Notes: generated by a model from the letters alone, not told the origin. DNA of 64,000 nucleotides from Thermoanaerobaculia bacterium (GCA_036399015.1 DASWNW010000038.1:37239-101238), one strand, 5' to 3'; positions 13,508 through 63,153 are shown, counted from the first letter of the stretch. Numbers and translations: made by a program.

Positions 13508-13606
13508 TGAATGAAGAAGTTCGAATGAAGAATTAAGAGGGAAGCAGCGGCGAGACGCAACTGCGCGCTCTCAATTCTTCATTCTTCATTCGAACTTCTT
13601 CATTCA
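13508..13606. repeat. AT-rich tandem-repeat hairpin (unit GAATGAAGAA); 26-bp perfect stem
   Basis: 13508-13533 is the exact reverse complement of 13581-13606. The arms are internally repetitive. The right arm carries one extra GAAGAAT unit. Confidence 0.9.
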
Positions 13607-13632
13607 AAAAAAGGGAGCGCCGAAGCGCTCCC
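13606..13632 (-). terminator. rho-independent terminator downstream of dksA
   Basis: On the minus strand: GGGAGCGC-TTCG-GCGCTCCC followed by TTTTTTT. Confidence 0.8.
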
Positions 13633-13664
13633 AAGCAAATCACTACGAACGCGGCAGGAAACCC

Positions 13665-14036
13665 CTACTGAAGCATCCCCTTTTCCTGCAGCTCCTGGCA
13701 ATCGATGCAGAACGGCGTCCACGGAACCGCCTGGAGGCGCTTCTCGCCGATGGTGACGCCGCAGTTGGTGCAGACGGCGTAGGTGCCTTCCTTCATGCGG
13801 GTGAAGGCCTCTTCGATGAGCATGAGCAGGTTGCGCTCGGCGTCGGAGAGGGAGAAGTTGAGCTCTTTGGAGTAGGCGCTGTAGGCCTTGTCGGCGAGAT
13901 CCTGGATCCCGTCGTCGACGGCGGTGTTGCCGGCCTGCTTGTCGCGCTCGAACGAGTCGAGAAGCTCGCGCTGCTTGGTGCGGAGCGCATCCTCGTGATG
14001 CTGATGCGGATTCGGTTTGGTCTTCGCTTTCGCCAT
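13665..14036 (-). CDS. dksA: DksA/TraR-family C4 zinc-finger transcription factor
   Basis: CTNCG-x17-CIDCQ zinc finger preceded by a coiled-coil region. Confidence 0.85.
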   Translation of the reverse strand: MAKAKTKPNPHQHHEDALRTKQRELLDSFERDKQAGNTAVDDGIQDLADKAYSAYSKELNFSLSDAERNLLMLIEEAFTRMKEGTYAVCTNCGVTIGEKRLQAVPWTPFCIDCQELQEKGMLQ

Positions 14037-14052
14037 TCGAGAGCCTCGTGAA

Positions 14053-14523
14053 CTACTTGTGATACGAAATGTTGCGCATCAACGTGCAGGCCCGGTAGAT
14101 CTGTTCCAGCAGGAGGACGCGTGCGAACTGATGCGGGAGGGTCATCGGGGTGAGGGCGAGCAGCTTGTCCGCCCGGTGCCTGACCGAGTCGTCGAAGCCG
14201 ACATCGCCGCCGACGACGAAGTTGACGCCGTGCGGACTGTCGATGGTCAGCCTCTCCAACCACTTCGCAAACTTCAAAGAATCAACGGTTTGGCCTCGTT
14301 CGTCGAGGACCACCACGTACCCGCGATCGGGGATCGCGGCCAGCAGGCGCGCGGATTGAGCGCGCATGATAGCCACATCGCTCTGAGCTTGTCTACCGCG
14401 CTCGGAAGCGACTTCGGCGACCTCGATCGGAAAGAAATGTCTGATCCGATTGATGTACCGCTCCGCGACCGCGGCCAGCTCAGAGTCGGCATGGGAACCG
14501 GACCAGATGAACCTAAATTTCAT
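14053..14523 (-). CDS. rlmH: 23S rRNA (pseudouridine1915-N3)-methyltransferase
   Basis: SPOUT-family RlmH pattern VVLDERGQ ... FVVGGDVGF ... LALTPMTLPHQFARVLLLEQIYRA. Confidence 0.9.
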   Translation of the reverse strand: MKFRFIWSGSHADSELAAVAERYINRIRHFFPIEVAEVASERGRQAQSDVAIMRAQSARLLAAIPDRGYVVVLDERGQTVDSLKFAKWLERLTIDSPHGVNFVVGGDVGFDDSVRHRADKLLALTPMTLPHQFARVLLLEQIYRACTLMRNISYHK

Positions 14524-14532
14524 GCGCTCCGC

Positions 14533-60172: not shown

Positions 60173-60549
60173 GAGAGGTCTTCGAGGATCGGGCACTCCG
60201 GGCGGTGATCGCCGTGGCAGTGCTCGGCGAGCTGCTCCAGCGTCCGCTTCATCGCCTCCATCTCCCGGATCTTTCCCTCCAGCTCCCGCACGTGCTCGAG
60301 GGCGAGCCGCTTCACCTCCCTGCTCGGCCGGTGCTGCTGCCATAGGCCGAGGAGGGCCTGGATCCGCTTCATCGAGAAGCCGAGGTCGCGCGCGCGGCGG
60401 ACGAACTGCAGCGTGTGCACGTCGTTCTGCGAGTAGACCCGGTAGTTCGAGCCGGTCCGCTCCGCCGCCGGGATCACCCCAATCTGCTCGTAGTGCCGGA
60501 TCATTTTCGCGCTGACTCCTGAGGCCGCGGCCGCTTCGCCGATGTTCAT
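60148..60549 (-). CDS. cueR: Cu(I)-responsive MerR-family regulator
   Basis: MNIGEAA..SGVSAKMIRHYE.IG HTH. C-terminal CHGDHRPEC (C-x7-C) metal site. Confidence 0.85.
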   Translation of the reverse strand: MNIGEAAAASGVSAKMIRHYEQIGVIPAAERTGSNYRVYSQNDVHTLQFVRRARDLGFSMKRIQALLGLWQQHRPSREVKRLALEHVRELEGKIREMEAMKRTLEQLAEHCHGDHRPECPILEDLSHASSAAR

Positions 60550-60574
60550 GTCCGAAAGAACATTGAGGCCCCTC

Positions 60575-60605
60575 TTGACCTTCCCACAATGGGAAGCCTT
60601 ACGTT
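60575..60605 (+). promoter_or_regulatory. MerR-type copA promoter/operator
   Basis: TTGACC, then a 19-bp spacer carrying the dyad CTTCCCA-CAA-TGGGAAG, then TACGTT. It resembles the E. coli copA promoter architecture. Confidence 0.65.
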
Positions 60606-60641
60606 GTGGCCAGCATGATGAAACACGACAGGAACACAGCC

Positions 60642-62936
60642 ATGACTACCCCCACCTCAGTCACCGACCCCGTCTGCGGGATGACGATCGATCCGGCCCA
60701 CGCCGCCGGCAGCTCGACCCTCGACGGCACCACCTATTACTTCTGCAATCCGCACTGCAAGATGAAGTTCGACGCCGATCCGGCGGCGTACCTCGGCGGC
60801 TCGAAGCCGGCCCCCGTGGAGGCGCCTCCGGGCGCGGAGTGGACCTGCCCGATGCATCCGGAGATCGTCCAGGACAAGCCGGGGAGCTGCCCGATCTGCG
60901 GCATGGGTCTCGAGCCCCGCACGGTGACGCTGGAAGACAGCAACCCCGAGCTCGACGACATGACCAGCCGCTTCAAGGTCAGCGCGGCGCTCACCGTGCC
61001 GCTCGTCGCGCTCGCCATGCTCCGCCACGTGCCCGGCCTCTTTCCCCACGACGCCATGGGGTGGGCGACCTGGGCCGAGCTGGCGCTGGCGACGCCGGTC
61101 GTGCTCTGGGGCGGCTGGCCGTTCTTCGAGCGCGCCTGGGCCTCGTTCGTCCACCGCCACCTGAACATGTTCACGCTGATCGGCATCGGCGTGGCGGTGT
61201 CGTACGTCTACAGCCTCGTGGCCACGCTCGCGCCGGGCCTCTTCCCCCCCTCGCTGCGCGATCACGCCGGCAACGTCGGCGTCTACTACGAGGCCGCCGC
61301 GGCGATCGTGACGCTCGTGCTCCTCGGCCAGGTGATGGAGCTGCGCGCCCGCAGCCGGACCGGTGCCGCCATCCGCGCCCTTCTCGGCCTCGCCCCAACG
61401 ACCGCGCGCCGCATCGATGCACAGGGCGGCGAAGCCGACGTCCCGCTCGAAGAAGTGCAGGCCGGTGACGTCCTGCGCGTCCGTCCCGGCGAGAAGGTGC
61501 CGGTCGACGGCGTCGTGCTCGAGGGGACGACCAACGTCGACGAGTCGATGGTCACCGGCGAGCCGCTGCCGGCCGAGAAGAAGCCGGGCGACCGCCTCAT
61601 CGGCGCGACGGTCAACACCACCGGCTCGCTGCTCATGCGCGCGGAGCGCGTCGGCAGGGACACGCTGCTCGCGCGCATCGTCCAGATGGTCGGCGAGGCG
61701 CAGCGCAGCCGCGCGCCGATCCAGAAACTCGCCGATACCGTCTCCGCCTGGTTCGTCCCGCTGGTGATCGTGATCGCGCTGATCACGTTCGCCGTCTGGG
61801 CGCTGGTCGGGCCGGAGCCGCGGCTCGTCTACGCCATCGTCAACGCGGTGGCGGTGCTGATCATCGCCTGCCCCTGCGCCCTCGGGCTGGCCACGCCGAT
61901 GTCGGTGATGGTCGCGGCCGGGAAGGGTGCGTCCGCGGGAGTCCTCTTCCGGAACGCCGAGGCAATCGAGGTGCTGCGCGACGTCGACACCCTGGTCATC
62001 GACAAGACCGGGACGCTCACGGCCGGGAAGCCGCGCCTCACGACCGTCGTCTCGAGCGGCATCGACGAGAACGAGATGTTGCGCCTGGCCGCGAGCGTCG
62101 AGCGTGCGAGCGAGCATCCGCTCGCCGCCGCCATCGTCGCCGGCGCGGAGGAGCGCGGCGTCGCCATCCCGAAGGCGCAGCACTTCGAGTCCGTGACCGG
62201 CAAGGGCGTCTACGGTGCCGCGGAGGGGCGGCGGGTGGCGCTCGGGAACCGGGCCATGCTCGCGGAGATGCACGTCGAGGCGGGCGAGCTCGCCGCGCGC
62301 GCGGAGCAGTTGCGCGCCGACGGCCAGACGGTGATGTTCGTCGTCATCGACGGCAAGCCGGCCGGACTCCTCGGCGTCGCCGATCCGGTGAAAGAGACGG
62401 CCGCCGAGGCGGTTGCCGAGCTGCAGCGTGCCGGCCTGCGCATCGTGATGCTGACCGGCGACAGCGCCACGACCGCCAACGCGGTGGCGAAGAAGCTCGG
62501 CATCGACGAGGTGATCGCGGAGGTGCTGCCGGAGCAGAAGGCGGAGGCGGTGCAGCGCCTCCAGCAGGAGGGGCGCATCGTGGCCATGGCCGGCGACGGC
62601 ATCAATGACGCGCCGGCGCTGGCGCGCGCGCAGGTCGGGATCGCCATGGGCACCGGCACCGACGTGGCGATGGAGAGCGCGGGCGTGACGCTGGTGAAGG
62701 GCGACCTGCGCGGCATCGTCCGCGCGCGGCGCCTCAGCAACGCCACCATGGCCAACATCCGCCAGAACCTCTTCTTCGCCTTCATCTACAACGCCCTCGG
62801 CGTCCCCATCGCCGCCGGCGTGCTCTACCCCTTCTTCGGCGTGCTCCTCAGCCCGATGATCGCAGCCGCGGCGATGAGCTTCAGCTCCGTCTCGGTGATC
62901 GCCAACGCCCTGAGGTTGCGGGGGGCGAAAATGTGA
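60642..62936 (+). CDS. copA: copper-translocating P1B-type ATPase
   Basis: N-terminal TRASH/YHS-like CGM...CNPHC and CPMHPE...[24 protein letters not shown]. In-frame alternative starts at GTG 60606 and ATG 60615. Confidence 0.9.
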
Positions 62937-62954
62937 CCGCGCCGTTCCGGCGGA

Positions 62955-63153
62955 GGCTGCCGCAGTCTTTCCGAGGGCTGCCGCAGTCTCCGCGAGGGGT
63001 GCCGTCGTCTTTCCGAGGGCTGCCGTCGTCTTTCCGAGGGGTGCCGTCGTCTTTCCGAGGGCTGCCGTCGTCTTTCCGAAGGCTGCCGTCGTCTTTCCGA
63101 AGGCTGCCGTCGTCTTTCCGAGGGCTGCCGTCGTCTTTCCGGAGGCTGCCGCG
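62955..63153. repeat. 21-nt direct tandem array, about 9.5 copies (consensus GGCTGCCGTCGTCTTTCCGAG)
   Basis: Units start at 62955, 62976, 62997, 63018, 63039, 63060, 63081, 63102, 63123 and 63144 (last one partial). There are 0-4 substitutions per unit. Confidence 0.95.

Follow-up and report, generated by a model that had tools for sequence, protein, structure and literature searches.

What kind of element occupies the spacers of a soil bacterium when its loci resemble one another in architecture and not in sequence? The question is raised by a 64,000-nucleotide stretch (one strand) of a Thermoanaerobaculia genome (GCA_036399015.1, DASWNW010000038.1:37239-101238), hereafter the window, in which positions are counted from the first letter. 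Several of its intergenic spacers hold hairpins built from an array of short tandem units, a centre, and an array of the reverse-complement units. The window has a G+C content of about 68%, and its LepA protein is 81-95% identical in amino acids to that of 80 species-level metagenome-assembled genomes (MAGs), which assigns it to Acidobacteriota, class Thermoanaerobaculia, a widespread but uncultured lineage of soil; the window is part of the JGI soil metagenome contig Ga0334963_000013 (244,790 bp). A preliminary description had proposed a recurring class defined by architecture; three of the loci that it named fold with z-scores of -7.9 to -8.9 (RNA folding energy versus shuffles), and a lineage-wide census agrees with the proposal. 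The explanation that we favour, and hold to be somewhat probable, is that the loci are lineage-wide palindromic minisatellites, evolved by slippage and similar to repetitive extragenic palindromic (REP) sequences, which probably fold into stem-loops in the RNA at the 3' end of the upstream gene's transcript, a function that we infer.

The census drew on GTDB genomes and Joint Genome Institute (JGI) metagenomes and took in 1.76 Mb, 87% of it coding, in 154 non-redundant related loci, about 20 kb per genome; arrays of the window were called with Tandem Repeats Finder (TRF), and an array finder of our own was used as well. Arrays of 7-nt units are intergenic in 217 cases versus 24 in coding sequence, and those of 8-nt units in 53 versus 12. 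An inverted partner lies within 150 nt of 156 of the 270 intergenic arrays (131 with 7-nt and 25 with 8-nt units), whereas a partner in the same orientation alone accompanies only 6. The inverted array pairs number 79, or about 45 per Mb, and there is a similar number of unpaired arrays. Shuffled controls come nowhere near these figures: 1101 related spacers contain 244 arrays and 72 inverted pairs, against 3-11 arrays and no pairs in ten dinucleotide shuffles. The median pair has an arm of 30 nt, a centre of 22 nt and 4 copies, with gaps of 2-122 nt; the period is mostly 7 nt, less often 8, and rarely 9-10 or a longer composite unit. Arms differ by at least one unit in 29 of the 79 pairs, which bears out the unequal copy numbers first remarked on in the window, and hairpins defined strictly are intergenic without exception (43 of 43). 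More than 100 assemblies of many projects, a chromosome-level MAG (L061) among them, contain members of the class, and by extrapolation a genome would carry a few hundred of these hairpins, placing them among the commonest non-coding features of the lineage.

All loci named in the preliminary description exist where it had put them, and the window also holds a member that it overlooked, the empty form of a site occupied elsewhere, and an array that probably lies outside the class:

13508-13606, between minus-strand genes: hairpin with heptamer arms (-72 kcal/mol, z -8.6, on either strand); arms of 31 nt, 97% complementary, made of the heptamers GAATGAA/GAAGTTC/GAATTAA, around a GC-rich 37-nt centre.
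25119-25199, minus strand: hairpin of GGTTGYC heptamers (-36 kcal/mol, z -3.1, weak); 5' arm 25123-25146, 3' arm 25170-25188.
35468-35520, plus strand: solo direct array of CCGAGGAAC(Y), 10 nt in 5.3 copies, TRF score 90.
37556-37672: hairpin of four GTTCCTCGG(R) units, a 21-25-nt centre and five CCGAGGAAC(Y) units; arrays of 4.2 copies at 37556-37596 and 4.9 copies at 37622-37670.
43483-43711: extra member with 84-nt arms, 82% complementary, each of two units of about 31 nt.
46005-46075, divergent spacer: empty site, where the window holds only ...ACCCAGAGAGG...
47468-47589: hairpin of 8-nt units, AGTCTCAG in 5.2 copies (47468-47509), a short centre and CTGAGACT in 7.6 copies (47529-47589).
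62955-63151, plus strand: direct array of 21 nt in 9.4 copies, TRF score 303, z -2.5.

Across the lineage the pairs are anchored to the ends of genes. Of the 46 pairs in co-directional spacers, 36 begin between -20 and +30 nt from the stop codon of the gene before them (median 5 nt). The distance to the following start codon varies widely, and few pairs end within 15 nt of a start. The window follows this placement as it had been described, its elements beginning 0-28 nt after a stop codon except at 13606, which directly follows a terminator, and two of them ending close to a start codon, 25119 at 1 nt from ATG 25117 and 13508 at 7 nt from ATG 13500. That the flanking genes are co-directional is true of every window locus and does not extend to the lineage, where 46 pairs lie in co-directional, 17 in convergent and 13 in divergent spacers (spacer background 495, 170 and 225). 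Most divergent cases represent a single orthologous promoter region, of which the window has the empty form at 46005-46075; in at least six relatives a tandem-repeat hairpin is inserted there exactly between CATTCTACACA and GGAATGG, a position at the very border of one gene's -10 box and the region upstream of the other gene. Elsewhere, too, start codons are preceded at 6-9 nt by -10-like boxes, with the hairpin in the place where a -35 element would be, an arrangement conserved in relatives. Boxes of this kind are TAGCAT (35529-35534) and TAACAT (47593-47598), with TAAGAT in relatives, all without a Shine-Dalgarno sequence. Such -10 boxes without Shine-Dalgarno sequences suggest leaderless or near-leaderless mRNAs with promoters that may not need a -35 element. 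Hexamers resembling -35 boxes at a fixed spacing within the 3' arms, looked for by eye in the spacer before selD, gave no convincing match, and their distances vary; a shunt-like coupling in which the stem would juxtapose stop and start codons fits only 25119 and 13508.

The individual window loci illustrate these rules. At 13508-13606 the hairpin lies between the terminator of a dksA-like gene and the ATG (13500) of a holA-like gene, both on the minus strand, and its 13606 side directly adjoins the canonical terminator at 13613-13632 (minus); the arm that had been read as GAATGAAGAA is really a heptamer run, GAATGAA-GAAGTTC-GAATGAA-GAATTAA. The 25119-25199 element, whose paired array was called by our own finder (TRF alone gives only 2.3-2.7 copies), starts 5 nt after a stop codon (25204) and is followed by the ATG of a carboxyltransferase gene; its unit family, GTTGTCG, is present in four other genomes, and also in L127/L128. 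The solo array at 35468-35520 has no fold (z +0.2) and begins 1 nt past the stop codon of a 23S-IVS-type protein gene; the TAGCAT box lies 8 nt downstream, then ATG 35541. Relatives L016 and L022 also carry solo arms at the orthologous sites. The upstream gene (35123-35467, plus strand) encodes a 23S rRNA intervening-sequence (IVS) or four-helix-bundle protein (PF05635), and arrays of CCGAGGAAC stand on both sides of two fumarase-family genes (35468-35520 and 37556-37672). The second of these elements begins 28 nt past the stop codon of a gene with Lyase_1 and FumaraseC_C domains (class II fumarase/aspartase family) and folds at -102.5 kcal/mol (z -7.9), with 41-nt arms that are 88% complementary; its unit recurs in L004 (twice) and L025.

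In the overlooked member, 43483-43711, the units of about 31 nt are themselves small hairpins (TRF period 31, two copies), and the region that holds it, 43473-43760, folds at -207.5 kcal/mol (z -11.7). It lies directly 3' of the lepA stop codon (43472) and 5' of a GTGAC-N4-GTCAC palindrome and a sigma-54-type promoter. This palindrome, GTGACGGCCGTCAC, and the TGGCAC-N5-TAGC promoter after it occupy 43725-43767, upstream of a gene at 43853, and the stretch is kept in many relatives as TGGCACGCTTCCGGC. At 47468-47589 (-80 kcal/mol, z -8.9) the TAG stop codon of an upstream 90-aa gene falls within the first unit, and the end of the hairpin is followed 3 nt on by the TAACAT box and 18 nt on by the ATG of selD. 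That gene starts at 47608 and not at 47752, a start miscalled by a simple gene caller because of an in-frame UGA. The selD gene (selenophosphate synthetase, AIRS family, 47608-48663, plus strand) carries this UGA at 47665-47667 (...TTGG*ACKLGQ...), followed by a SECIS-like stem (GGTCAG/CTGACC), and its N-terminal exon-like part is kept together with the UGA in about 40 related loci.

The 21-nt array at 62955-63151, between a Cu-ATPase gene and the next gene, had been listed as a possible member; it has no long stem, no inverted partner and no 7- or 8-nt period, showing none of the features of the class, and probably falls outside it. An open reading frame (62933-63208, plus strand, 91 aa) with nine LPSSFRG repeats exactly spans the gap that contains the array; it begins with a GTG that shares bases with the stop codon of the ATPase gene (GTGA), stops 5 nt before the next ATG, and shows weak codon bias. 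The 64 kb contain only six hairpins whose arms reach 16 nt or more, and four of them are these intergenic loci. A search of the window against Rfam returned two tRNAs only at gathering score, and the hairpins match no family.

The arms also obey a rule of composition. The 5' arm is G-rich (G exceeds C) in 68 of the 79 pairs, a bias of 68:7, with an average of 35% G, 25% A, 25% T and 15% C, and owing to the palindromic structure the rule of a G-rich first arm is valid on both strands. Hairpins of the related loci that lack tandem arms are G-rich first in only 50 cases versus 31. Two explanations of the C-poor 5' arms were considered and dropped: stop codons in all frames (28 units contain a stop triplet versus 28.3 expected) and arrays resembling Shine-Dalgarno sequences, for ribosome capture or re-initiation (11 versus 13.4 expected). 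As the preliminary description had held, the stems have no U-tract: six or more T within the 10 nt after the stem are found at 2 of 46 on the sense strand and 1 of 46 on the antisense strand. Textbook intrinsic terminators, with a GC stem, a tetraloop or short loop and a T-run, are present at 13613-13632, 17520-17544 and 20208-20233, all on the minus strand; at some genes, then, the organism does terminate transcription in the canonical way.

How the elements change is visible in two spacers that can be compared across genomes because the gene order from lepA to selD is conserved. The spacer before selD takes several forms, in which the flanking genes overlap in GTGA, or the spacer is short and plain, or it holds a tandem-repeat hairpin, a single arm, or an unrelated palindrome family. 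Octamer units at this site are graded from AGTCTCAG (window and L042) through AGTCGWCG (L004) to AGGCKCAT (L014 and L078), units of the AGTCKCAG/AGGCKCAT type, and unrelated heptamers are found as well (GATGAAC, GGATTTT, AAGGCAG, GAATTTC and GCGTGCG). The spacer after lepA behaves likewise: in relatives it is empty or is taken up by hairpins of heptamers or octamers or by other palindromes. Between L127 and L128, which are 97.9% identical, about five extra units occur in one arm only, and between L046 and L129 (99% identical) a 28-nt indel, four units of 7 nt, affects one arm. In one comparison of 98%-identical genomes a whole element, nested in a small GC stem, is absent, leaving GTTGT and a CGG microhomology at the junction. 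At the 13508 site, exact-protein look-ups gave one identical and one divergent copy, plus contigs ending in arrays: an independent ENA assembly has the identical hairpin, and a Logan contig with an identical DksA has GAAGGCA units in place of GAATGAA in both arms, so that the unit turned over with palindromy preserved. A metagenome scan for strain-level variants of the window gave no hit whose amino-acid identity to the query exceeded 85%, and an exact look-up of the protein encoded at 3165-3515 returned no record.

Copy number thus shifts by whole units, one arm at a time, and whole elements are lost, leaving remnants of units. The turnover suggested at the outset is borne out by the whole-unit indels; the idea that complementarity is maintained holds only loosely, since the arms change independently. 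Nor is the unit different at every locus, as had been stated. The 115 sites hold 81 exact units, and an exact unit is shared by 14.8% of within-genome pairs of sites versus 1.0% of pairs between genomes, about 15 times as often; the window itself reuses CCGAGGAAC, and two elements of L042, separated by 6 kb, have unit and loop in common. The impression of different units without shared sequence arose from a small sample. Several unrelated units can occur within 20 kb of one genome (four families in L023, two in L078), and each genome has a few small unit families common to distant sites, which indicates that some process spreads or homogenises units within a genome. The elements, in sum, are confined to non-coding DNA, and the pairing of arrays is almost always inverted and not direct; in co-directional spacers they are anchored to stop codons, or they stand shortly before -10 boxes; and at a given site they are dispensable and do not last long.

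Other structured sequences share these surroundings. Three further dispersed palindrome families occur in the same spacers of other genomes (TTTGGAGTGCGGCGGC..GCCGCCGCTTT, TGTCATCCTGAGC..GAAGGATC and GGAGCGGCGGGCTTCAGCCCGCC; examples are L008 8693-8801, L041 14715-14811 and L028 13264-13320). A structured element of about 130 nt, CGAGACCCTTCAG...GCGGGCGAATGGGCGTGCC...(CT)n...GGAGGGTCTCG, is conserved in many genomes at a distance of roughly 2-9 kb on the upstream side of lepA (L078 5848-5975, L074 6176-6301, L034 at about 8800-8915) and is absent from the window; it has no Rfam match at E<=0.01, its consensus fold has 39 pairs, two of them with compensatory changes, and in L034 it stands between two identical AAATTGA hairpins.

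Under the explanation that we favour, arrays would expand and contract by replication slippage, and the arms would be kept alike by intrastrand template switching between them, to which selection on the stem may contribute. Template switching between inverted-repeat arms is documented in other organisms (PMC7202029, PMC8604942, PMC13100816). Ectopic conversion, or copying to new sites at a low rate, may keep units uniform within a genome, and elements would persist where insertion is tolerated, from the stop codon to the next promoter, which would be independent of a -35 element and often leaderless. Stems of 25-45 bp would then form part of the upstream mRNA at its 3' end, where, in the manner of REP sequences and bacterial interspersed mosaic elements (BIMEs), they would be barriers to 3'-exonucleases and reduce the transcription that runs on into the following gene. 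A pyrimidine-rich RNA forms a weaker kind of RNA:DNA hybrid. The polarity rule might therefore matter at stem closure: RNA of either strand would end pyrimidine-rich and form a weak hybrid there, a direction-independent effect that could conceivably substitute for a U-tract.

Several observations weigh against this explanation, the RNA-level part of which is presumed. Thirteen of 76 pairs lie in divergent spacers, where no gene ends, and close relatives lack the element at orthologous sites. The 13508 hairpin is not needed for termination, because it directly follows a canonical intrinsic terminator. Mismatches compatible with G·U pairing are not in excess on the sense strand (20 hairpins are more stable in sense versus 17 in antisense), and the hairpins of the window fold at least as well in antisense; this lack of G·U or strand bias gives no evidence of selection on RNA. 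The order of variant units is mirrored between arms at 0.855 versus 0.841 after permutation, a difference that is uninformative for template switching, which predicts such mirroring. Purely local slippage is insufficient, since the unit, and once the loop, recurs at distant sites. From the divergent cases, the hairpin beside a terminator, the empty orthologous sites and the missing strand bias one would conclude that most copies are tolerated rather than needed.

Recurrence at distant sites would also be expected if the hairpins were non-autonomous mobile elements, like REPINs (hairpin-forming REP doublets) or miniature inverted-repeat transposable elements (MITEs), copied by a transposase encoded elsewhere that recognises the arrays as ends. 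To the 15-fold excess of exact units within genomes and the two L042 elements with a common unit and loop can be added the presence or absence of elements between 98%-identical genomes, the alternation of unrelated palindrome families in the same spacers, as at insertion hot spots, and a unit distribution that at one site does not track LepA identity. We nevertheless consider such copying rather unlikely. Of 71 elements only 1 has identical flanks of at least 2 nt, as a target-site duplication would leave, which is fewer than in the offset control, and the terminal tags occur, for GTAG and CGTC, at 2 of 71 and 1 of 71 stem ends, which is unlike classical MITE or REPIN transposition; moreover, the elements have no fixed ends, their arms varying by whole units, unit-like remnants stay behind at empty sites, the families are tiny (81 exact units at 115 sites), and no transposase came to light, though none was searched for. 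A bolder reading, which is quite unlikely on our assessment, would make the hairpins a separate class of self-renewing palindromic minisatellites with a G-rich-first direction rule that either serve as terminators or insulators, independent of a U-tract and of direction, before leaderless promoters lacking a -35 element, or are made and spread by a dedicated enzyme. An enzyme of this kind would explain how a unit, and sometimes a loop, recurs across a genome without target-site duplications, and if true, either version would amount to a new kind of bacterial non-coding element and not a REP variant. Termination as the main role, by bidirectional, U-tract-independent (I-shaped) terminators or insulators selected site by site, strikes us as distinctly unlikely. 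It would suit very stable stems that start at the stop codon, their placement after a gene's end and ahead of the promoter that belongs to the following gene, a 3' arm that is pyrimidine-rich in either direction, and the scarcity of canonical sites (terminator-like sites in 60 kb are not above shuffle expectation, with about three convincing by eye). It is at odds with the near-absence of U-tracts, the divergent locations, the hairpin that follows a canonical terminator, the lack of sense-strand bias and the empty orthologous sites, including those of genomes in which the genes overlap.

Binding of a nucleoid-associated or global regulator, such as IHF or HU, to arrays of sites on double-stranded DNA is the published view of a like architecture in Geobacter (PMC2700814). 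Elements just upstream of -10 boxes, the divergent promoter region among them, accord with that view, as does the altered promoter read-out after deletion of a heptamer repeat in Nostoc (bioRxiv 10.1101/2022.06.06.494920). Yet unrelated units lie within 20 kb of each other, 81 exact units serve 115 sites, the unit differs between genomes with an identical flanking protein, and close relatives have empty sites; units that are so diverse within a genome and change so fast fit sequence-specific binding poorly. A period of 7-8 bp is, in addition, out of phase with the DNA helix, and we judge binding-site arrays very unlikely. The chance that the hairpins are artefacts of short-read metagenome assembly or sequencing, a concern raised at the start, is negligible. 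Short-read contigs L163 and L166 do end inside arrays, and a Logan contig breaks in the 47468-47589 array; against this stand the identical 13508 hairpin in the independent assembly of another sample, the occurrence in so many assemblies, one at chromosome level, and the ordered rules of position and composition. Two further candidates were set aside: integron attC sites, in which structure also counts over sequence, informally, the flanks here being housekeeping genes in conserved synteny and the arms tandem arrays; and intrastrand triplex repeats (PMC4666352), which require mirror repeats where these are inverted repeats.

The hairpins have practical consequences, as they break short-read assemblies, and the gene call of the ENA assembly stretched the holA start into one of them. 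Long palindromes are usually purged by bacteria, and these elements would allow their making and erasure through slippage and template switching to be followed in nature. If the G-rich-first rule proves functional, it would bear on how transcripts are ended or insulated without a U-tract, a question relevant to many GC-rich phyla.

Among known systems, intrinsic terminators resemble these elements as stable stem-loops after a stop codon and differ in that the hairpins here lack the U-tract and have stems 3-5 times longer. Heptamers are the commonest long simple sequence repeat in bacteria, and their general excess was noted by Mrazek et al. 2007; direct heptamer repeats are known as the short tandemly repeated repetitive (STRR) sequences and the TTTTGAA repeats of cyanobacteria and as TAACTGA of Beggiatoaceae (PMC4679880; bioRxiv 10.1101/2022.06.06.494920). 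They share with our arrays the 7-nt period, the preference for non-coding sequence, 2-6 or more copies, a location near start codons, and presumed slippage. However, they are direct arrays in a fixed orientation relative to the downstream start, with one or a few dominant units per genome, whereas those described here are mostly inverted pairs, with many different units per genome; in 'Maribeggiatoa' a single inverted case is reported among 170 repeat sets (PMC4679880), and the two orientations are about equally frequent among our solo arrays (23 versus 17). The REP sequences, BIMEs and REPINs of Proteobacteria are extragenic palindromes 3' of genes, transcribed as stem-loops and proposed to act in mRNA 3' stabilisation or termination (PMC3733652, PMC3116915). 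Likeness extends to variable abundance, presence or absence between strains, and several families per genome; but REP sequences are conserved units of 20-40 bp with a GTAG/CGTC tag, linked to the REP-associated tyrosine transposase (RAYT), and the present elements have tandem arms of variable copy number, almost no tags and few members per family. By analogy, REP sequences and REPINs may be regarded as the nearest functional analogue.

The closest architectural parallel overturns the initial view that no such element type had been described. In Geobacter metallireducens GS-15, Aklujkar et al. 2009 (PMC2700814) catalogued paired inverted arrays as 'putative global regulator binding sites' of three classes: four tandem octamers GTTGCTYN (class 1, 24 pairs), three tandem units of about 9 nt, TCTCCGTS[Y] (class 2, 21 pairs), and five tandem heptamers MTYCTGA (class 3, 8 pairs). 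IHF/HU were proposed as the proteins that bind them (PMC2700814). In both organisms opposite-strand array pairs lie in intergenic regions at variable distance, 3' or 5' of ordinary genes, with several families per genome, and the occasional unpaired 'vestigial' sites there have a counterpart in the solo arrays here. Tandem units of 7-9 nt with a median of 4 copies, and opposite-strand intergenic pairing of 156 of 270 arrays, place our elements within the same design. The units themselves are not shared, the nearest, GGTTGCTG, being one base off the class 1 consensus and found at three sites only, and the resemblance is one of architecture and not of sequence homology. The two cases differ in phylum (Desulfobacterota versus Acidobacteriota) and in family structure, with BLAST-matched families of 8-24 pairs in Geobacter as opposed to tiny, highly diverse families here. 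With the hairpins, then, an architecture that has scarcely been described gains a new variant and a further phylum; previously unreported are the preference for heptamers in inverted pairs, the anchoring to stop codons and the strand-independent G-rich-first polarity. The link with Geobacter suggests that this architecture recurs across phyla and merits a name.

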